Shown: in pieces, positions 39,460 to 50,118 of the stretch | Layout: every line of letters starts with the position of its first letter | Position numbering within the stretch: the stretch's first letter is position 1 | Origin: a bacterium | GTDB taxonomy: Bacteria; Patescibacteriota; Andersenbacteria; UBA10190 | Length of the DNA: 64,000 nt | Assembly (NCBI GenBank): GCA_043811915.1 | Contig: JBDRMS010000006.1 | Span: 22,870 to 86,869, forward strand | Direction of reading: 5' to 3' | Made by a program: the position numbers and the translations under genes | The notes under the pieces: model-generated | What the model was told of the DNA's origin: nothing | The model's database searches: none | Seen by the model: the letters and a program-made list of their open reading frames with translations, nothing else

Positions 39460-40866
39460 GTGCGAGCTTTTTTAGTGGTTTTATTGTTGGCCTGGTTGGT
39501 TGGCGTTGCGTTGGGGATAGCGGGACTATCTGTGGTAGTGATGTTATTGGCGGCGGCGGCGTTTGGTTTGGGAGCCGTGCGGCATTGCTTTCAACTAGCT
39601 ATAACTACTGCGTTGTTGATCTGTTTGGGGTATGTGTGGGGCGGTTACGCGGGCATTTCCGGAATAGGCGATTGCAATTTTGAGCCGGGGGCGACAGGCG
39701 GGATTATCGGTCAGCCGCGAATTGAGGCAGAGAGAGTTTTGGTAGTAATACAAAGTGAACATAGTTGTCGGGCGCTGGTTACGACTGGTCGCTTTAGTGA
39801 ACTGGAAGAAGGAGATGTGCTCGAACTAACTGGCGGGCAGGTGCAATCACTTCAGGAAGTGCGGGATTATTCTGCGGGTTATGCTGGATATTTGGAGCGG
39901 CGGGGGATTAGTGCGACGTGGAGATACCCAAATATTAATGTGGCTCAGCCAAGCAGTAATTGGACAAATATGTTGCATGACAGAGTGCGAGAGCGGGTCA
40001 CATCATTGTTCATAGAGCCAGACGCCAGCGTAGTGCTGGCGGTGTTGCTGGCCGAGAAGGGCACGTTGCCGGATCAGTTGGTGGAACAGTTTAGGACGAC
40101 TGGCGTCAGCCATGTCTTAGCTATTTCCGGCCTGCATATATCGTTATTAACCGGTATGTTGCTGGCGGTGTTGATGGCGTTGCCGCTGGCACCACGGGTG
40201 CGGACGGTCGTGGTACTTGCCTGGTTGTGGTCCTATGTTGTTTTTATTGGATGGCCGACTTCGGCGACCCGGGCGGCTGCTTTCTGGACTATTGCGCTGG
40301 TGGCGTTACAACTGCACGTTTTGGTTAGCCTGCCGACAATTTTGTTGCTGGCGGCAACTGTGCTGGTTTCTTTGGATCCCTTGTTTTTATTAGATGTTGG
40401 TTTTCAGCTTTCGATTAGTGCAGTGGCGGGGATTTTTATAGTGTTGTTTTTAACGCGTGATTTGCCTAAGCGGAGCTGGGTTCTTGATTTAACATTGGTT
40501 TCCCTGGGGGCCTGGTTAGCCACGGGCCCAGTGATTGCCTATCATTTTGGCAATGTTGTTTTGTCAGGCGTAATGACGAACTTGCTAGTTGTACCTCTAG
40601 TGCCGGCGTTGTTGGTGTTGGCTGTGGTGGCGCTGCTGCTGTCGCTAGTATTTATGCCAGCGGCAATGCTGATGACCTGGTTGACGCATGGCGTTATCGG
40701 TTGGATTGATTGGGCTACTAGCCTTATTTCCGCCCAGCCTGGCCTTTTTTATGAAGGAGTAAATGTGCCGGTGTGGTCGGTGTTTGTCTATTATCTAGTT
40801 ATGATCGGTCTAGGCGGAGTGGTTTTGCGGTATCAGAAGCGTAACTGGCGGGAGATATGGCAATGA
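39460..40866 (+). CDS. comEC: ComEC/Rec2 DNA-uptake channel, membrane competence domain
   Basis: 468 aa polytopic. Competence-domain signature TGVSHVLAISGLHISLLTG. Confidence 0.75.
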   Translation: MRAFLVVLLLAWLVGVALGIAGLSVVVMLLAAAAFGLGAVRHCFQLAITTALLICLGYVWGGYAGISGIGDCNFEPGATGGIIGQPRIEAERVLVVIQSEHSCRALVTTGRFSELEEGDVLELTGGQVQSLQEVRDYSAGYAGYLERRGISATWRYPNINVAQPSSNWTNMLHDRVRERVTSLFIEPDASVVLAVLLAEKGTLPDQLVEQFRTTGVSHVLAISGLHISLLTGMLLAVLMALPLAPRVRTVVVLAWLWSYVVFIGWPTSATRAAAFWTIALVALQLHVLVSLPTILLLAATVLVSLDPLFLLDVGFQLSISAVAGIFIVLFLTRDLPKRSWVLDLTLVSLGAWLATGPVIAYHFGNVVLSGVMTNLLVVPLVPALLVLAVVALLLSLVFMPAAMLMTWLTHGVIGWIDWATSLISAQPGLFYEGVNVPVWSVFVYYLVMIGLGGVVLRYQKRNWREIWQ

Positions 40867-41777
40867 AAGAGCAGAGGGCAGAGATTAAAGATAAAAGTTA
40901 CGGGCTGGAAGCTGGGGTCTTGATTTTGATTATTATTTTGCTGCTGCTGGCAGTGGTGCCGGGGGTGGAGGATAAAGTGGTTTTTCTGGATGTGAGGCAA
41001 GGAGACTCTATTCTTTTGCAAAGTAAAACTAATCAAGTATTGATTGACGGTGGACCGGGGATGACGGTATTGCGTCGGCTGGGGGAAGAAATGCCGTGGT
41101 TCGACAGAAGAATTGAGGTGGTGGTACTAACTCATCCCCAACGAGATCACATGGAAGGGTTGTTGCATGCGCTGGACAGATATGAAGTGGGAATGGTGCT
41201 GCTACCAAAAATTGCTCATACCTCGCAAATGCAGGAGGCGTGGCTGAAGAGAATTACCAGTAAGGGAATTGCTTATCGTTTTGCCTGGGCAGGCGAAAAG
41301 ATTGTTGCGGGAGATATGATGATGACAATATTGGGGCCGTTTGACACTGAAGCGGCCAGGGCAGCAGCGCGAGCCAATTTGAATAATGTGGCAGTGGTGG
41401 CGCGAGTGGACTATGGCGGGATGTCTTTCCTGCTAACGGGGGACATTGAGAAGCGGATGGAGAGGATGTTGGTGTTGGAGTATGCGCGCGCCTCCTCACC
41501 AAGGGTTTTCCCGGCACGCGCTGCGAATGTCCTCGACGTTGATGTTTTGAAGGCCGGGCATCACGGCAGTAAGACTTCTACTAATGAGATATTGATTGAC
41601 AAGGCGAAGCCGGCGGCGGCGGTAATATCGGTGGGGGCTGATAATAAGTTTGGCCATCCTCATCCGGATGTACTGGCGCGTCTGGGCGATATACCGGTTT
41701 GGCGGACGGATGAAGCGGGATCGATTGGTTTTAAGTTGATGGATGATGGGCGGTGGATAATTGATGTTGACGGGTGA
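40857..41777 (+). CDS. ComEC C-terminal metallo-beta-lactamase-fold domain encoded as a separate overlapping ORF
   Basis: 306 aa. VLLQSKTNQVLIDGGPG...VVVLTHPQRDHMEGL HxHxDH-type MBL motif. Overlaps the upstream ComEC ORF by 10 nt in a different frame. Confidence 0.7.
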   Translation: MAMKEQRAEIKDKSYGLEAGVLILIIILLLLAVVPGVEDKVVFLDVRQGDSILLQSKTNQVLIDGGPGMTVLRRLGEEMPWFDRRIEVVVLTHPQRDHMEGLLHALDRYEVGMVLLPKIAHTSQMQEAWLKRITSKGIAYRFAWAGEKIVAGDMMMTILGPFDTEAARAAARANLNNVAVVARVDYGGMSFLLTGDIEKRMERMLVLEYARASSPRVFPARAANVLDVDVLKAGHHGSKTSTNEILIDKAKPAAAVISVGADNKFGHPHPDVLARLGDIPVWRTDEAGSIGFKLMDDGRWIIDVDG

Positions 41778-41798
41778 GGAGAATTTGTTAATGTTAGT

Positions 41799-41925
41799 AA
41801 CCGGTAGATGTTGTTTTTAAAGTTTGATCAAAAGGGATAAGTGAAGTGGGTGTAACTCCCACGCTGTGCCGCAACGGTAACCCCGCCTTTAGGCGGGGGA
41901 GTCCGATCCTTATCCGGTGTGTTAA
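41799..41925 (+). ncRNA. candidate cobalamin (B12) riboswitch
   Basis: Matches the remembered cobalamin-riboswitch core: GGGATAAGTGAAGTGGGTGTAACTCCCACGCTGTGCCGCAACGGTAA (GGTG.AA.TCC...GCTG.CCGCAAC.GTAA). A GC hairpin CCCCGCC-ttta-GGCGGGG and an AGTCCG B12-box-like segment follow. ACCGGT at both ends can close a P1 helix. The element sits directly upstream of the DUF4430 gene. Confidence 0.55.
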
Positions 41926-42004
41926 TTATTATTTAGCTTCCGAGCAGGGGCGCAAAGAAAGAATATTTGTCTCCTTGCTCTGGAAAATCAAGAAAGGAGA
42001 TTTT

Positions 42005-42472
42005 TTGTTAAAAGAGAAAAAAATTTATCGGGTGCGGGTTGAGATAGTAACGCTGTTGATATTGGTGCCGCTGGTGCTGGTGCTGGGGGCGGTGTTGAGT
42101 AGTTGGCCGCAAGACGCTGAAGAAAGTAAGCCGGCTGTTGCAGGCGAGGCACGACAAGTAGTGACGCTGAATATTCAGGGTCCTGGGGAAGTTATGGTGT
42201 ATGAGGTGGCTGTTGAGGGTGAAGCAACTGTTCGGGAGGTGTTAGAGGGGGCAGTTGTGCGAAGCGGCCTACTGCTTGACGTAAAGGACTACGGAGAGGA
42301 GTTGGGAATTTTTGTGGAAGCGATTAACGGGGTAGCAGGAGATGCCGGTCGCGGCACTTACTGGCATTTGTATATCAACGACGTATTGTCGCCGGTGGGG
42401 GCATCAACGGCCAAAGTGATGCCGGGCGACAGGATAACCTGGAAATATGAAAAACAGCATGAAGAAAATTAG
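42005..42472 (+). CDS. membrane-anchored DUF4430 (transcobalamin-like beta-domain) protein
   Basis: Start chosen at TTG 42005, preceded by AAAGGAG (41993-41999). The six-frame ORF start at 41846 would run through the riboswitch and hairpin. Has a signal anchor, then VTLNIQGPGEVMVYEVAVEGEATVREVL...GIFVEAINGVAGDAGRGTYWHLYINDVLSPVGASTAKVMPGDRITWKYE, which fits the DUF4430 pattern (G.FV..ING......W.Y.VN........Y.L..GD.I.W.Y). Confidence 0.55.
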   Translation: MLKEKKIYRVRVEIVTLLILVPLVLVLGAVLSSWPQDAEESKPAVAGEARQVVTLNIQGPGEVMVYEVAVEGEATVREVLEGAVVRSGLLLDVKDYGEELGIFVEAINGVAGDAGRGTYWHLYINDVLSPVGASTAKVMPGDRITWKYEKQHEEN

Positions 42473-44321
42473 TTTACTGGTAGTTTGTGTAGTGGGAATA
42501 GCCTGGGGCGCGTTGACGTTACAGGCGGCCGGGGAAGCAACTGTTGATTTAAGAATAGAGGGGAGCGAGAGCACAGTGTTTGCAAGGCCGGTTACAGTGT
42601 CGGATTGCAGTATTGCAGATGTAGGAGGAGTTGAGCACGAAATGTCAGGGGTGGCAGCGTGCGCTCTGGCAAAGGCGGCGGAGCAGAGCAGTTTCGAGAT
42701 GGAATTCAAGGATTTTGGCTTCGGTTTGTTTCTGGACAGAATTGGTTCGGATAGTACACCGGATGACTTTTCACAGAGCTGGTCTTTTTGGACCAATGAC
42801 AGCCCGGCCAGCGTGGGAGTTGACACCTACGAGGTGGAAGAAGGGGATAACTTATTACTGGCTTTTTCCGCCTGGCCGGCAGTGCCGCTGCGAGTGACGG
42901 GACCGGATGCGGCCGAGGCCGGCGAGACCATTACTTTTCTGGTAGAGAAGCGTGTAGGGGAATATGACGATAGCTTTATCTGGCAGGGCGGGTGGCAGGC
43001 GGCAGAAAATGCGATTTTGGATGTGGGAAGTAATGAATACCAGGTACCCGCTGACGGCGTGGTTAGAGTGACACTGGATAGCCCAGGGACAATAGCAGTG
43101 CAGGCGCGGGGAGAGGGACTGGTGCGCAGCAGCAGGCATGTAGTAGAAGTGGCGGCAGTGGTGGCGAGTCCGAGCGCGGAACCGACTGTGTCGCCAAGTC
43201 CGAACCCTAGTCCTTCATCCAGCAATAGCTCATCACCAAGCCCAAGCGTGGTGCCGGTTAGTGTTAATATGCGGCAAGACAGCGCGGGGCGGGCGCTTGT
43301 CTATCTGCGCGGGCAGCAAAGCAGTGATGGCACCATTGGCGGCTCAATGACGTCGGCCTGGAGCGCGATGGCTTTTGGGGCTGATTATCAGAGGGCACAA
43401 AATATTATGAAAGGCGGCGCTTCTTTGCTGGATGGATTAGAACAGGCTGTCTTGAGCAGTGCCACTGATGTGGAGCGGCAAATAATGGCGGTGCGGGCGG
43501 CGGGCATTAACCCAAGGTCATTTGCTGGCAGTGATTTGGTTATGGAATTAAAAAGTTATTATCGACAAGGTCAATTTGGTGAGGAGAGCCTGATTAATGA
43601 TGATGTGTTTGGTATATTGGCACTGTTGGCTGCCGAAGAGCCGATAGAATCGCCGGAAATAAGGGGGGCAGTAAAGACTGTGCTGTCTGCCCAGAAGTTT
43701 GACGGATCGTGGGATAACATTGATATGACGGCGGCGGCGGTGCAGGCGTTGAATGTTTATGCGAAACGGGGGGGCAGTATAGCAGTCGGTGGTGCAGTAA
43801 TCAGGGCGCGTGATTATTTACGTAATAGTCAGGACAAGTATGGTGGCTGGGGAGAAAATTCGGCCACGACGGCCTGGACTATTCAGGCGGTGGTGGCGCT
43901 GGGGGAGAAGGTGGATAGTTGGAAAAATAATGATGGCATGACGCCATGGCAGGCCTTGCTTCGTTATCGGAATAATAACGGTGGTTTTGGCTGGAGAGAA
44001 AAGAATGATGTGTCGGCATTTATGACGGCATACGCGGTGCCGGCGTTGCTTGGCCGGGCATGGCCGATTACTTTATTGGAATTGGAGACATCCTTGGCCA
44101 CATCTCCATTGCCGGCGGTGGCTGGTGCTGTGACGGCGATAGCTACCGTGGCGCCGGTAAGTTCTCTAGTGCCAGAGGTGGTATCGGAAGAGGTGGCTAA
44201 TGTTAATGTTGGTGATGATTTTGTTGCGCCCAGGGCGGTGGACCGTAACTTTGCGATTACTTTATTTGGTTTAGCTAATTTGGGTATTGGGGTGGCGGTG
44301 GCTAGAATGATTTTGATATGA
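42447..44321 (+). CDS. secreted DUF4430 + alpha/alpha-toroid (prenyltransferase/terpene-cyclase-like repeat) protein with C-terminal membrane anchor; transcobalamin-like architecture
   Basis: 624 aa. Signal peptide, N-terminal DUF4430-like beta domain (TVDLRIEGSESTVFARPVTV...SWSFWTNDSPASVGVDTYEVEEGDNLLLAFS) and a Ser/Pro linker. Repeated aromatic/Gly-Trp motifs of alpha/alpha-toroid repeats follow (SDGTIGGSMTSAWSAMAF, KYGGWGENSATTAWTIQAV, NNGGFGWREKNDVSAFMTAYAVPAL), then a C-terminal hydrophobic anchor. Confidence 0.55.
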   Translation: MKNSMKKISLLVVCVVGIAWGALTLQAAGEATVDLRIEGSESTVFARPVTVSDCSIADVGGVEHEMSGVAACALAKAAEQSSFEMEFKDFGFGLFLDRIGSDSTPDDFSQSWSFWTNDSPASVGVDTYEVEEGDNLLLAFSAWPAVPLRVTGPDAAEAGETITFLVEKRVGEYDDSFIWQGGWQAAENAILDVGSNEYQVPADGVVRVTLDSPGTIAVQARGEGLVRSSRHVVEVAAVVASPSAEPTVSPSPNPSPSSSNSSSPSPSVVPVSVNMRQDSAGRALVYLRGQQSSDGTIGGSMTSAWSAMAFGADYQRAQNIMKGGASLLDGLEQAVLSSATDVERQIMAVRAAGINPRSFAGSDLVMELKSYYRQGQFGEESLINDDVFGILALLAAEEPIESPEIRGAVKTVLSAQKFDGSWDNIDMTAAAVQALNVYAKRGGSIAVGGAVIRARDYLRNSQDKYGGWGENSATTAWTIQAVVALGEKVDSWKNNDGMTPWQALLRYRNNNGGFGWREKNDVSAFMTAYAVPALLGRAWPITLLELETSLATSPLPAVAGAVTAIATVAPVSSLVPEVVSEEVANVNVGDDFVAPRAVDRNFAITLFGLANLGIGVAVARMILI

Positions 44322-44878
44322 AGAAGGATTACTTGCTCTGGTTTTTCCTGGCGGCATTGATAGCGGGAGCGGCAATGGTGCGGGTGGGTAGTCATTTTCC
44401 CAACGCCACGCCGGTGGCGGCTGTTGCCTTATTGGCTGGAGCTGGTTTGAAGACGCGCTGGGCGGCGGCGGTGCCGCTGATAGCGATGGCTGTATCTGAC
44501 GTGTTTATTGGTTTTTCTCCATGGCCGATTACGGTGGCGGTTTACGGGTCGTTTGCCTTGATAGCATTGTTGGGCCGCTGGCTTGAGAACAATAGAGCGG
44601 CGGGGCGGGTAGTCGCGGCGGCGCTAGCTTCGTCTATATTATTTTATCTGATTACTAATGGGGCGGTGTGGTGGTTCAGCGGTCTTTATGCGCACACGGT
44701 GGATGGGCTTATCCTTTGTTATTACCTGGCCATACCATTTTTCCGCAATACGATGCTGGGAGACCTGGCTTATACGGGCGGCTTGTTCCTGGTGGTGGAA
44801 TATGTGCCGACGTTAGCGAACCTTTTCCACAATTTTCACAACAAAATTAAAATTCACTATGGTACACTGGTCGGATGA
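44318..44878 (+). CDS. small polytopic membrane protein, candidate vitamin-transporter substrate-binding (ECF-S / BtuM-like) component
   Basis: 186 aa, about 5-6 TM helices. Size and topology are typical of energy-coupling-factor S components. The functional call rests on gene context only. Confidence 0.35.
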   Translation: MKKDYLLWFFLAALIAGAAMVRVGSHFPNATPVAAVALLAGAGLKTRWAAAVPLIAMAVSDVFIGFSPWPITVAVYGSFALIALLGRWLENNRAAGRVVAAALASSILFYLITNGAVWWFSGLYAHTVDGLILCYYLAIPFFRNTMLGDLAYTGGLFLVVEYVPTLANLFHNFHNKIKIHYGTLVG

Positions 44879-47193
44879 ATTATTTTAAAACACTGCAGAA
44901 AGTAAACATCAGGTTTTCGCTTAGTGAGGGAGACGTGGCGAATATTCCTTCAATTCGTAAGCGGGATGGCCGAGTGGTGTCGTTTTCTCTGGACAAAATA
45001 TCGCAGGCAGTGTTGAAGGCGTTGAAAGTGACAAAAGAGGGGGATGAGTCGGATGCTGACTTTATTGCCAAGAAGGTGGCACGAGATGTATTGAAATTGA
45101 GGCGAGCCAGCCACAGTGAGCGGTTTGTGCCGGATGTGGAAATGATTCAGGATCTGGTAGAGGAAGAGTTGATGTTGCAGGATTTTGTCAAAACGGCCAA
45201 GGCTTACATTTTATACAGGGAGAAACATGCGGAGCTGCGGGAGATTAAGGGAGTGGTGCCGGCTCGAGTGAAGGATCTGGTGGCCAGGAGTAGAAAATAT
45301 TTCCGAAACCCGTTGGCCGAGTTTATTTACTTTCGCACTTACGCGCGCTGGATTGATGAAGAAGGACGGCGCGAGACCTGGATTGAAACGGTGGATCGCT
45401 ACCTGGACTTTATGAAGGAGAATATAGGTGATCGTTTGAGTGAAGAGGAATACAGCGAAGTGCGCCAGGCTATTTTGAATCATGAGGCGATGCCTTCCAT
45501 GCGGTTGATGCAGTTTGCGGGTAAGGCGGCGCGAAATACCAACGTATGCACCTATAATTGTTCTTACATTGCCCCTTCCAATTGGCAGGATTTTGCTGAG
45601 GTAATGTATGTGTCGATGTGCGGGACAGGAGTCGGTTTCTCAGTAGAGAGTCAAAACATACAGGCCCTGCCTCAGATTAAGAAACAGACGGGAGAGCAGC
45701 TGCCGAAACAGGTGGTGGATGACAGCAAGGAAGGCTGGGCTGATGCGCTGGCGCTGGGCTTAAACACGTGGGCTGACGGCAAAGACATTAAGTTTGATTT
45801 ATCAGGACTAAGGCCAGCCGGAGCCAGATTGAAAACGATGGGCGGCAAAAGTTCCGGTCCGGAGCCGCTGCGCCAGCTGCTGGAGTTCACGCGCAGCAAA
45901 ATGTTGAATAAACAGGGCAAGCGGCTGTCGAACATCGATGCCCACGACATCCTGTGTAAGATTGGTGATTGTGTGGTGTCTGGCGGAGTGAGACGCAGTG
46001 CTTTGATTTCTCTGTCTGATCTGGATGATACCGATATGCGTGATGCCAAGAAGGGACAGTTTTATGTGCAGGAGCCGCAGCGAAGTCTAGCTAATAATTC
46101 GGCGGTGTATCATGAGAAGCCGCTAACCACCGACTTTATTGATGAGTGGGTGGCGCTGATGAAGAGCGGCAGCGGTGAGCGGGGTATATTTAACCGGGGA
46201 AATTTATCGCAGACGCTGCCCAGGCGTCGGTTGGAACGGCTGGTCAAGGGTGAGGAGCCGCAGTGGGGCACAAACCCGTGCGGAGAAATTATCCTGAAGT
46301 CGAAGCAGTTTTGTAACTTAACGGAAGTAGTGGCGCGGCCGAAGGATACATTGGAAAACTTGAAGCACAAGATAAAAATAGCGTCGATTCTAGGTACCTA
46401 CCAGGCGACACTGACTAACTTTCCTTATTTGTCCAAAGAGTGGCAGGAGAACTGTGAGACGGAACGGTTACTGGGTGTTTCTATCACGGGGCAGTGGGAC
46501 TGTGAGACGGTGAGGGATAAAAAAGTATTGCAGCAGTTGCGGGAAGAGGCGGTGGCGACAAACAAAGAATACGCGGAGAGGTTTGGTATTCCTCAGGCAA
46601 CTTGCGTGACCTGTGTCAAGCCTTCCGGCACGGTATCGCAGGTGGTGGACTGTGCTTCGGGTATGCACCCGCGGCACGCCAGGTATTACATTCGCCGGGT
46701 CCGTATTTCGGCTACGGACGCACTGTTTATGATGTTGAAAGATCAAGGCGTGCCTTATTATCCGGAAGTTGGTCAGTCGGTGGAAGATGCCAGCACATAC
46801 GTGTTTGAGTTTCCGGTTAAGGCACCGGAAGGAGCGGTGGTGAAGGATGACCTCACGGCGTTGGAGCAGCTTTTGCACTGGAAAATGGTCAAGGAAAACT
46901 TTACGGAGCATAATCCGTCGGTAACTATTTCGGTGGGAGACGATGAGTGGATTCGAGTGGCTGACTGGTTGTATGATAATTGGGAGTTGGTGGGAGGACT
47001 GTCATTCCTGCCGCGGACAGACCACGTGTATCAGCTGGCGCCCTATGAGGAGATAGACAAGGAACGTTACGAAGAGTTGCTGAAAGGAATGCAAGACATA
47101 GACTATGCCAAAATCGTTACTTATGAAAAAATGGATGACACGGATGTGAAGATGGAACTGGCCTGTGCGGCGGGGGTGTGTGATATAGGGTGA
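44875..47193 (+). CDS. nrdJ: class II adenosylcobalamin-dependent ribonucleotide reductase with N-terminal ATP-cone
   Basis: 772 aa. ATP-cone (VVSFSLDKISQAVLKALKV), catalytic NPCGEI motif (WGTNPCGEIILKSKQFCNLTEV), a thiyl-radical Cys loop and C-terminal redox cysteines (ACAAGVCD). Confidence 0.85.
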   Translation: MNYFKTLQKVNIRFSLSEGDVANIPSIRKRDGRVVSFSLDKISQAVLKALKVTKEGDESDADFIAKKVARDVLKLRRASHSERFVPDVEMIQDLVEEELMLQDFVKTAKAYILYREKHAELREIKGVVPARVKDLVARSRKYFRNPLAEFIYFRTYARWIDEEGRRETWIETVDRYLDFMKENIGDRLSEEEYSEVRQAILNHEAMPSMRLMQFAGKAARNTNVCTYNCSYIAPSNWQDFAEVMYVSMCGTGVGFSVESQNIQALPQIKKQTGEQLPKQVVDDSKEGWADALALGLNTWADGKDIKFDLSGLRPAGARLKTMGGKSSGPEPLRQLLEFTRSKMLNKQGKRLSNIDAHDILCKIGDCVVSGGVRRSALISLSDLDDTDMRDAKKGQFYVQEPQRSLANNSAVYHEKPLTTDFIDEWVALMKSGSGERGIFNRGNLSQTLPRRRLERLVKGEEPQWGTNPCGEIILKSKQFCNLTEVVARPKDTLENLKHKIKIASILGTYQATLTNFPYLSKEWQENCETERLLGVSITGQWDCETVRDKKVLQQLREEAVATNKEYAERFGIPQATCVTCVKPSGTVSQVVDCASGMHPRHARYYIRRVRISATDALFMMLKDQGVPYYPEVGQSVEDASTYVFEFPVKAPEGAVVKDDLTALEQLLHWKMVKENFTEHNPSVTISVGDDEWIRVADWLYDNWELVGGLSFLPRTDHVYQLAPYEEIDKERYEELLKGMQDIDYAKIVTYEKMDDTDVKMELACAAGVCDIG

Positions 47194-47729
47194 TGTTGTA
47201 TACCAGGCAGGGGGACAGTGGTGCGACGTTCACCTGTCCGGCCGGGTCCAGAGTGTCGAAGCGGTCTAAATTAATTGAGGCGCTGGGGGCTCTGGATGAA
47301 ATAAATTCCTGGCTGGGGTTTTGTAAGGCGCGGTTGCCGGAAGAGGTCGGGTCGCTAAAAGATATCATTCATGGATTGCAGGAGGATTTGTTTATAGTGC
47401 AGGCGGAGCTGGCCGGGGCGGACAAGACAATAACGGCTGACAAAGTAAAAAGGATGGAGGTTCTGACGGATCAAATAGAACAACAGTTGCCGAAGATAAA
47501 TACTTTTTTTATCGCGGGGGAGACGGAGATATCTGCGTCTCTGGATGTGGCGCGGGCGCTGGCGCGCCGGGCCGAGCGGCGGGTGGTTGACGCAGTGGAG
47601 GCAGGGGAAGCGCAGGTGGGGAATGACACGAAAGCTTTTCTCAATCGCCTGTCCAGTGTGCTGTACGTCTTGGTTCGCTTCGCTAACCACAAACTAGGCG
47701 TCACCGAAAAATCACCAACCTACAGATAA
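47190..47729 (+). CDS. pduO: PduO-type ATP:cob(I)alamin adenosyltransferase
   Basis: 179 aa. N-terminal YTRQGDSGATF..GSRVSKRSKLIEALGALDEINSWLG matches the PduO/MMAB-type adenosyltransferase signature. Confidence 0.8.
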   Translation: MMLYTRQGDSGATFTCPAGSRVSKRSKLIEALGALDEINSWLGFCKARLPEEVGSLKDIIHGLQEDLFIVQAELAGADKTITADKVKRMEVLTDQIEQQLPKINTFFIAGETEISASLDVARALARRAERRVVDAVEAGEAQVGNDTKAFLNRLSSVLYVLVRFANHKLGVTEKSPTYR

Positions 47730-50025: not shown

Positions 50026-50118
50026 GGGGACGTAGATCAATTGGGAGATCACTCCAGCTGGCCGCAAATGTGCACTATGCGGCAGGAGAGGTTAGGGGTT
50101 CGATTCCCTTCGTCTCCA
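50026..50118 (+). tRNA. aberrant tRNA-like element (~92 nt): canonical acceptor, D- and T-arms but an expanded bulged hairpin in place of a standard anticodon arm
   Basis: Acceptor GGGGACG/CGTCTCC (one G.U) with discriminator A. D-arm GATC-AATTGGGA-GATC. T-arm AGGGG-TTCGATT-CCCTT. The central 43 nt form CTCC..GCCGCA-aatgtgcacta-TGCGGC..GGAG rather than a 5-bp/7-nt anticodon arm. Confidence 0.4.

Follow-up and report, generated by a model that had tools for sequence, protein, structure and literature searches.

A 64,000-nucleotide stretch of Andersenbacteria contig JBDRMS010000006.1 (hereafter the window) very probably carries, in the leader of a gene cluster that begins with two DUF4430 genes, a class-II-type cobalamin (corrinoid) riboswitch of Rfam clan CL00101 that is closest to family RF01482 and serves as an OFF switch on a B12-acquisition operon in the Candidate Phyla Radiation (CPR; Patescibacteria). 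A preliminary description had flagged a candidate cobalamin riboswitch at positions 41799-41925 and placed its end about 80 nucleotides (nt) before the ribosome-binding site (RBS). That placement holds for the aptamer, which ends near 41918, but not for the whole element, which is larger, extending from about 41801 to 42007, because a P13 hairpin, an antiterminator and a terminator continue to the RBS and start codon.

Match to a known riboswitch family

We searched the whole window with Rfam 15 at its curated gathering scores and scanned positions 41650-42100 locally under permissive settings. The permissive scan placed RF01482 (AdoCbl, clan CL00101) at 41815-41962 with 44.6 bits, against a cut-off of 50, and an expectation value (E) of 4.5e-7, or about 6e-5 when scaled to the whole window. 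This alignment is full length (model positions 1-149), and clan filtering hides two weaker clan CL00101 matches, along with the exact RF00174 score. Scored on the core alone (41830-41920), RF01482 was the top clan member with 33.3 bits and a core alignment over 41835-41915. Three segments, GGUGUAACUCC, CUGUGCCGCAACGGU and AGUCCGAUC, line up with the RF01482 consensus and show no or almost no variation across the 55 aligned loci described below.

For a test independent of the window we built a covariance model, R2, from nine CPR elements that lie above the Rfam RF01482 cut-off, with P13 included and the window and its clade excluded. R2 gave exactly one match in the 64-kb window, at 41827-41977, with 68.9 bits and an E of about 2e-18 on a rough calibration, and this match spans both the aptamer and the downstream motif CGAGCA. 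The E of the full-length RF01482 match, together with the single window match of a model blind to the window clade, excludes a chance match. Judged by sequence and predicted structure, the element is a significant but sub-threshold match to the known family RF01482.

The letters on which the preliminary description drew are all in place: the core string GGGATAAGTGAAGTGGGTGTAACTCCCACGCTGTGCCGCAACGGTAA at 41834-41880, a GC-rich hairpin directly 3' of it (the P6 extension of Table 1) and AGTCCG at 41900-41905. Its call of a cobalamin riboswitch stands, on the grounds of the sub-threshold RF01482 match, the R2 match, covariation and homologues above Rfam cut-offs. The family that it had named, RF00174, must be replaced by RF01482, which is the best match; RF00174 itself gave no match in the window at its cut-off in the gathering scan.

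Homologous loci

We aligned 43 homologues of the 624-amino-acid (aa) protein encoded by the second gene of the cluster and used this alignment to retrieve 80 loci each from species-representative genomes and from metagenomes. A metagenome-assembled genome of an uncultured "bacterium" encodes a protein identical to the 624-aa protein, whose homologues are found in Parcubacteria, Andersenbacteria and other CPR genomes; the closest relative is L161, and L082 is a near-duplicate of L001. A search by nhmmer with the window leader as query matched dozens of loci significantly, in every case upstream of the DUF4430/toroid genes and on their strand. A second covariance model, R1, was built after the canonical cobalamin architecture had been mapped onto the 15 closest sequences, aligned with MAFFT. 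R1 found the element in 54 of the 80 genome loci and 51 of the 80 metagenome loci (50 of 68 and 32 of 51 when only loci with enough upstream DNA are counted) and once in the window, at 41828-41920, on which it is self-trained. Homologues thus occupy the same position in about 100 CPR loci.

Some of these homologues pass Rfam cut-offs. Among the closest loci L083 and L090 do so as RF01689 and L091 and L092 as RF00174, while ten of 16 more distant loci lie above the RF01482 cut-off (50.1-58.8 bits) and one is called RF01689; L042 passes RF01689. By this comparison the window element is a member of a CPR-wide set of clan CL00101 riboswitches, with its own sub-clade just under threshold. We also observed a lineage-specific sensitivity gap in Rfam 15: the sub-clade with an extended P6 helix is missed, whereas the P6-less L083 and L090 and the distant CPR relatives are reported.

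Architecture of the aptamer

Comparative evidence for the aptamer fold comes from alignments made in different ways. RNAalifold, applied to a plain MAFFT alignment of 38 sequences, recovered the outer helix, P4 and the P6 extension, and 11 of its 17 pairs keep pairing through two-sided changes. On the MAFFT alignment of the 15 closest sequences the canonical structure leaves 92.6% of cells paired, versus 38-51% when the partners are slid. Neither MAFFT-based result is fitted to a model. The 55-sequence genome alignment, which was fitted to R1, has 88.7% of cells paired versus 39-54% slid. Of its 23 pairs, 19 carry two-sided changes, and not one of 500 shuffles equals it in any of five measures. 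Within it, P5 shows U:A replaced by A:U in nine sequences and G:C by A:U in two; P6 itself is invariant and so uninformative for covariation. Covariation in homologous upstream regions, a comparison that the preliminary description had proposed, is therefore seen in the outer helix, in P4 and P5 and in the P6 extension, and it supports the four-way junction P3-P6.

The GGUGnAAnUCC core motif sits in P4/L4 and the B12-box-like segment AGUCCGAUC occupies 41900-41908, with P6 and AGUCCG nearly invariant. The P6 extension, by contrast in length, ranges among relatives from absent (L161, L083, L090, L142) to about 50 nt. Because its length varies in this way, the extension probably makes no contact with the ligand, and ligand preference is unreadable from the sequence.

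In L161, L086 and L007 the outer helix is continuous as AUC-G-GGAUAAG / CUUAUCC-GAU, with a 1-nt bulge. The window equivalent is AUC (41827-29) opposite GGU (41916-18) across a 5-nt AAAAG bulge, and this is a possible form of the ancestral outer-helix extension. The preliminary description had instead closed a P1 helix with two ACCGGT tracts. The second of these actually reads TCCGGT (41913-18), and its C residues at 41914-15 already form the last two outer-helix pairs; the tract aligned to 41800-05 is neither conserved nor complementary in L161, L086 and L007. We set aside the resulting candidate, ACCGG 41800-04 / CCGGU 41914-18, as it costs those two pairs, is unconserved in the same three loci and lies at the predicted transcription start. 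Folding favours a shorter closure by three ACC:GGU pairs, which encloses a weak leader hairpin (-38.0 kcal/mol), over the 5-bp P1 (-35.2) and the ancestral pairing (-34.4). The leader hairpin (41803-29) appears only in folding of the window, and the relatives compared have no conserved stem between P1 and P3. A P1 formed from ACCGGT at 41800 is not supported by these comparisons.

Predicted promoter and expression platform

The promoter-like element upstream of the aptamer overlaps the stop codon (41775-77) of the preceding metallo-beta-lactamase/ComEC gene. The window, L161, L086 and L007 all have TTGACG unchanged, and all four match TGnTA..T. In 29 of 93 loci TTGACN-N15-18-TANNNT occurs in the 120 nt that precede the aptamer, as compared with 0.8% of control windows. 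From this element we would place the transcription start near 41801. The three or four closest loci share the TTGACG/extended -10 arrangement, CUUCCGAGCAGG, UCUCCUkGCUC and a Shine-Dalgarno (SD) sequence AAGGAGA followed by a U-run and start codon.

Downstream of the aptamer, CGAGCA (the loop L13 of hairpin P13) is found exactly in 93 of 96 unique R1-positive loci, usually 5-10 nt after the aptamer. The three inner pairs of P13 co-vary: seven sequences have U:A in place of C:G, and six have C:G in place of U:A. The minimum-free-energy fold of 41935-41985 is the antiterminator, at -21.6 kcal/mol; when P13 is held, the terminator-like hairpin of GUCUCCUU and AAGGAGAU forms, at -10.8 kcal/mol. 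The 3' strand of this hairpin holds the SD sequence GGAG (41996-99), and the U-run after it overlaps the TTG start; the hairpin can therefore affect transcription as well as translation. The same terminator/SD arrangement is present in L161, L086, L007 and L085, and 73 of 92 loci have a hairpin of -6 kcal/mol or lower followed by a U-run before the start codon. The 5' half and loop of the terminator (consensus CYGCUCGG) are complementary to the P13 region. In the 73 loci with a clear terminator the median energy of this duplex is -12.9 kcal/mol versus -6.6 for shuffled sequences (median z = -3.0), and in the window it is -19.1 versus -7.3 (z = -5.2).

A few loci (for example L043, L116, L138, L145 and L056) show by eye no terminator, and in them the GGA(A) 3' arm of P13 is followed within a few bases by an ATG. 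One and the same P13/L13 module thus seems to mask the RBS directly in some loci and to control a terminator in most others.

A kissing interaction is also suggested. L5 UGCCG (41867-71) can pair with CG-A-GC of L13 (41941-45) if A41943 bulges, and L5 is GCC in 94 of the 95 R1 matches readable by pattern. L075 is the only locus in which L5 changes from GCC to CCC together with L13 from CGAGCA to CGAGGGA, which is compensatory for G41868:C41945. The RF01482 consensus has this same combination, L5 CcC with L13 CGAGGc. An L5-L13 kissing loop is common to all cobalamin riboswitch classes (PMC7367189), and the present data are suggestive of one here.

Proposed mechanism

Homology in sequence and structure, helix covariation, the conservation of P13/L13 and the complementarity of P13 to the terminator are direct observations, and on them we base a platform mechanism, well supported although inferred, that combines a kissing loop, an antiterminator and a hairpin that is both terminator and SD sequestrator. 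Transcription would proceed from the conserved TTGACG/extended -10 promoter with a start near 41801, and the aptamer (41827-41918) would fold as a P3-P6 junction with a continuous outer helix, no P2 and a short P6 hairpin. With a corrinoid bound, most likely adenosylcobalamin (AdoCbl), L5 UGCCG would kiss L13 CGAGCA and P13 (41937-50) would stay closed, leaving UCUCCUUGCUC free to pair with AAGGAGAU. The hairpin formed by these two strands and followed by U6 would resemble an intrinsic terminator and would bury the SD sequence at the TTG start, so that expression falls. With no ligand, the more stable antiterminator (41939-56 / 41966-84) would take up L13 and the terminator 5' strand, and the operon would be transcribed and translated. 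The OFF logic follows from the layout, in that P13 shares no bases with the terminator and competes with the antiterminator. B12-repressed expression of the downstream DUF4430, toroid and DUF6580 genes, which had been proposed at the outset, is likewise the most likely outcome of this OFF layout of the expression platform. What we infer in this scheme is which ligand binds, that L5 kisses L13, where transcription starts and how control divides between termination and translation.

Several observations weigh against this reading. No cobalamin family of clan CL00101 reached its gathering score in the 64-kb window, where the Rfam 15 scan returned three tRNA matches only; RF01689 scores below 33.3 bits on the window core, under its own cut-off of 36.5; and the 13 closest loci that have a P6 extension (L001, L002, L003, L005, L006, L007, L082 and L084-L089) all stay below every Rfam gathering threshold. 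P5, P6, L5 and L13 are near-invariant, and most claims about the core and tertiary structure draw on conservation, not covariation; for the kissing loop the covariation is that of a single sequence, L075, both loops being otherwise invariant. The proximal P1 pairing of the window is degraded relative to its relatives. The window terminator is weak, with 8 pairs and a 17-nt interior, and a generic terminator scan left it uncalled because the loop is 17 nt. Judged by secondary structure alone and with the aptamer enforced, the antiterminator is favoured over the P13/terminator state by 9.3 kcal/mol, and the switch therefore needs the energy of ligand and kissing loop, or kinetic control; the published model requires that the antiterminator be the more stable when ligand is absent (PMC10327014). 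Finally, it is counter-intuitive that high B12 should repress an operon that includes a B12-dependent ribonucleotide reductase (RNR), the known B12-riboswitch-controlled RNRs being B12-independent class Ia enzymes (PMC12528414).

Whether the ligand is AdoCbl depends on how the aptamer is subclassed. Cbl-IIa riboswitches have a bulged J1/3 and a P6 loop and bind hydroxo- or methylcobalamin, whereas in Cbl-IIb riboswitches, which bind AdoCbl, J1/3 is paired or has slight mismatches and P6 carries a short hairpin (PMC7367189). We regard it as rather doubtful that the window aptamer senses such small-upper-ligand cobalamins in the manner of Cbl-IIa, or is promiscuous, instead of being selective for AdoCbl. 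If AUC:GGU pairs, AAAAG would become a bulged J1/3-like segment, a Cbl-IIa hallmark (PMC7367189); set against that, Cbl-IIb is described as having a short hairpin on P6 and a J1/3 that is paired or mismatched only slightly (PMC7367189). The close relatives L161, L083 and L090 are without the P6 extension and are called RF01689, a family with env8-type RNAs, but RF01482, which is named AdoCbl, is the best match for the window and for most homologues. Selectivity has been argued to be a spectrum (PMC7367189), and the cluster encodes an adenosyltransferase and an AdoCbl-dependent enzyme. The element appears to be class II, its 7-bp P6 hairpin fitting IIb best, with the a/b subtype tempered by the absence of the extension in its closest relative, L161.

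The second alternative keeps the same aptamer and makes control purely translational: GUCUCCUU/AAGGAGAU would do no more than hide the SD sequence, the U-run would be incidental, and the RNR (NrdJ) and adenosyltransferase (PduO) at the end of the cluster would be little affected. Such control would resolve the NrdJ paradox, and it agrees with a hairpin whose 3' strand is the SD sequence, whose U-run overlaps the start codon and which is weak as a terminator and uncalled by the generic scan; the loci without a terminator named above look by eye like direct SD masking. We nevertheless consider it unlikely, as 73 of 92 loci have the hairpin and U-run, most with no SD visible by eye, which points to termination as the main mode of the family, and in the window, as in relatives, the hairpin is directly followed by U6.

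The OFF switch that we propose is far better supported than either remaining reading. An activating (ON) riboswitch, by which B12 would turn on the uptake genes and the B12-dependent RNR, has a precedent in the corrinoid riboswitch of A. halodurans cobT (PMC10327014) and a logic that would suit NrdJ and PduO, but it is very improbable, since the P13 of the ON type overlaps the terminator (PMC10327014), whereas here P13 (41937-50) and the terminator (41969-42001) share no bases, holding P13 lets the terminator form, and the layout is the same across the family. That the element is a decaying, non-functional relic is just as improbable: it scores 44.6 bits against a cut-off of 50, AAAAG interrupts the proximal outer-helix extension of its relatives, P1 is eroded and the terminator weak, but all family-invariant core positions are intact, all helices pair, L13 is intact, the antiterminator/terminator complementarity is intact and above the family median (z = -5.2), and the shortfall in score is common to a whole healthy-looking clade.

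Table 1. Features of the riboswitch leader and the downstream gene cluster (window coordinates)
Feature	Position	Strand	Details	Basis
Promoter-like element	41767-41794	+	-35 TTGACG 41767-72; 16-nt spacer; extended -10 TGtTAATGT 41786-94	Conserved in relatives
Cobalamin aptamer, four-way junction P3-P6	41827-41918	+		R1 match 41828-41920, R2, RF01482 core alignment
Outer helix	41835-41 / 41909-15	+	GGAUAAG / CUUAUCC	8/8 pairs changed on both sides, 55 loci
P4	41846-41862	+	GUGGG / CCCAC; 7-nt L4 UGUAACU	5/5 pairs co-vary, 97% of cells paired
P5	41865-41873	+	UGU / GCA; L5 UGCCG (41867-71)	Pair changes in relatives
P6 with extension and B12-box-like segment	41875-41908	+	CGG 41875-77 / CCG 41903-05	Near-invariant
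P6 extension hairpin	41881-87 / 41892-98	+	CCCCGCC / GGCGGGG; loop UUUA; 7 bp	4/4 modelled pairs co-vary
P13 hairpin	41937-41950	+	CUUC / GGGG; loop L13 CGAGCA (41941-46)	Aligns to RF01482 3' hairpin loop and R2
Antiterminator/anti-sequestrator helix (predicted)	41939-41984	+	41939-41956 with 41966-41984	Uses L13, P13 3' arm and terminator 5' strand
Terminator-like/SD-sequestering hairpin (predicted)	41969-42006	+	GUCUCCUU 41969-76 / AAGGAGAU 41994-42001; U6 42001-06	Folding and conservation
First gene	42005-42472	+	155-aa DUF4430 protein, N-terminal hydrophobic segment	Pfam DUF4430, 57.8 bits
Second gene	42447-44321	+	624-aa DUF4430 + alpha/alpha-toroid protein	Pfam, AlphaFold
Third gene	44318-44878	+	DUF6580 membrane protein	Pfam
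nrdJ	44875-47193	+	AdoCbl-dependent class II RNR (NrdJ), RTPR-like, ATP-cone	Pfam, NCBIfam
pduO	47190-47729	+	PduO-type cobalamin adenosyltransferase	Pfam, NCBIfam

Downstream genes

The AAAGGAG RBS (41993-99) and in-frame TTG (42005) of the preliminary description are both present, with the TTG 5 nt after GGAG. L161, L086 and L007 start with ATG at or near the position aligned to this TTG, which makes TTG 42005 the probable start codon of the first gene. The start at 41846 given by a six-frame open reading frame (ORF) search had been dismissed as an artefact, rightly on our evidence, for it lies inside P4 and the gene starts of the closest relatives align with TTG 42005.

The commonest gene order across loci is riboswitch, DUF4430, toroid, with or without DUF6580 to follow, and the riboswitch always lies directly before these genes. 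Transcobalamins have a C-terminal domain of the DUF4430 family (PMC4350170). In its AlphaFold model (pLDDT, the predicted local distance difference test score, 87.3) the 624-aa protein comprises an N-terminal transmembrane (TM) or signal helix, the DUF4430 beta-domain, a second beta-sandwich, a Pro/Ser-rich linker, the toroid and a C-terminal TM segment. As modelled, it would in effect be a surface-anchored protein with both domain types of transcobalamin, their order reversed. The toroid matches the fold of transcobalamin 2bb5_A with E = 3e-6 and a TM-score of 0.47; we did not retain this match as specific evidence of B12 binding, as squalene cyclases and complement TED domains match equally well or better. 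One homologue, P0017, carries a precomputed match to Pfam PF01122, the family of eukaryotic cobalamin-binding proteins. For the DUF6580 protein there is a marginal match (E = 0.048) to a 182-aa membrane chain of 6FNP, the vitamin B12 transporter ECF-CbrT. A role of the DUF4430, toroid and DUF6580 proteins in B12 uptake is consistent with these resemblances, which are circumstantial. Literature searches on DUF4430 with riboswitches, on DUF6580 and on riboswitches in the CPR gave nothing relevant.

The position of NrdJ and PduO bears on the repression paradox. The last three gene junctions of the cluster overlap by 4 nt, and NrdJ and PduO may be on the same transcript as the riboswitch-controlled genes. 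They lie downstream of the riboswitch only in the window clade, namely L001 (with its near-duplicate L082), L002 and L007, and also L162. A gap of 50-63 nt follows the DUF6580 gene in L161 and L162, and the next gene in L162 is NrdJ. In L044, L062 and L027 the NrdJ-PduO pair was observed immediately upstream of the riboswitch, outside its control. Within the 3' end of the window DUF6580 gene, just before the nrdJ start, we noted three overlapping weak sigma-70-like matches (9/12) at 44824-44863 (+); they may amount to an internal promoter through which NrdJ and PduO escape the riboswitch.

A bolder proposal, and one that we hold to be quite unlikely, is that the riboswitch transcript does run through DUF6580 into NrdJ and PduO, as suggested by the 4-nt overlaps that join these genes, and that the lineage-specific pair L5 UGCCG/L13 CGAGCA and the fall of this sub-clade below all Rfam thresholds could mark a distinct corrinoid selectivity. 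If the transcript did run so far, one sensor would throttle B12 uptake, the synthesis of its own ligand and a B12-dependent enzyme, the reverse of the textbook repression of B12-independent RNRs.

CPR organisms are thought to scavenge cofactors. The present analysis assigns a regulator, and by association a role in B12 acquisition, to a widespread and uncharacterised CPR gene set: DUF4430, the DUF4430-toroid surface protein and DUF6580. It also identifies a cobalamin riboswitch sub-clade that escapes Rfam curated cut-offs and corrects a spurious ORF start. The riboswitch class and the kissing-loop/terminator mechanism are already well known, and the gain is in annotation and comparative detail, with no new concept.

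Other features of the window

Upstream of the leader, ComEC is split into overlapping ORFs carrying a Competence domain (39460-40866) and a metallo-beta-lactamase domain (40857-41777), both on the + strand. The split recurs in L161 and is therefore probably natural, rather than the product of a sequencing frameshift. Further downstream a tRNA was called at 50026-50118 (+) by Rfam (47.3 bits) and not by ARAGORN. This 93-nt tRNA-like sequence has normal acceptor, D and T arms and an insertion of about 29 nt in the anticodon arm with its own hairpin, GCCGCA...UGCGGC, and it may be an intron-containing or otherwise atypical tRNA.

Comparison with known cobalamin riboswitches

The window element most resembles RF01482/Cbl-IIb. 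Both have the four-way junction P3-P6, GGUGnAAnUCC in P4/L4, GCCGCAACGGU in P5/P6 and the AGUCCG B12-box segment, and both combine the lack of a P2 module with a short P6 hairpin and a 3' P13 loop that could kiss L5. They differ in L13, which is CGAGGcA in the RF01482 consensus and CGAGCA in the window, and, with a matching change, in L5, reported as UCCCG and here UGCCG. P4 of the window lacks a one-base bulge and the outer helix extends into the consensus J3/4-J6/3. The window element further differs in scoring 44.6 bits, below 50, and in its CPR host and position ahead of DUF4430/toroid/DUF6580 genes.

In regulatory logic the element is like the Priestia megaterium metE corrinoid riboswitch, whose antiterminator is likewise more stable than P13 when the kissing loop is absent (PMC10327014). 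The logic of metE was tested experimentally (PMC10327014), whereas that of the window is drawn from conservation and folding. Compared with metE, the window has a P13 of 3-4 pairs with a 6-nt loop, an antiterminator that uses the P13 loop and both arms, and a terminator whose 3' strand is the SD sequence.

The minimal core is shared with RF01689 'AdoCbl-II' (formerly AdoCbl-variant; env8-type, Cbl-IIa), which the P6-less relatives L083, L090 and L042 pass, but the window element is below the 36.5 cut-off of that family and has a 7-bp P6 hairpin. Cbl-I riboswitches (RF00174; E. coli btuB, T. tengcongensis) are defined by a P2 module and a long P6 extension (PMC7367189). The window element has in common with them the ligand-binding core, the B12 box, a putative kissing loop and the predicted control of B12 transport genes, and it differs from them in having neither the P2 loop-stem-loop nor the long P7-P11, its P6 carrying a 19-nt hairpin only.

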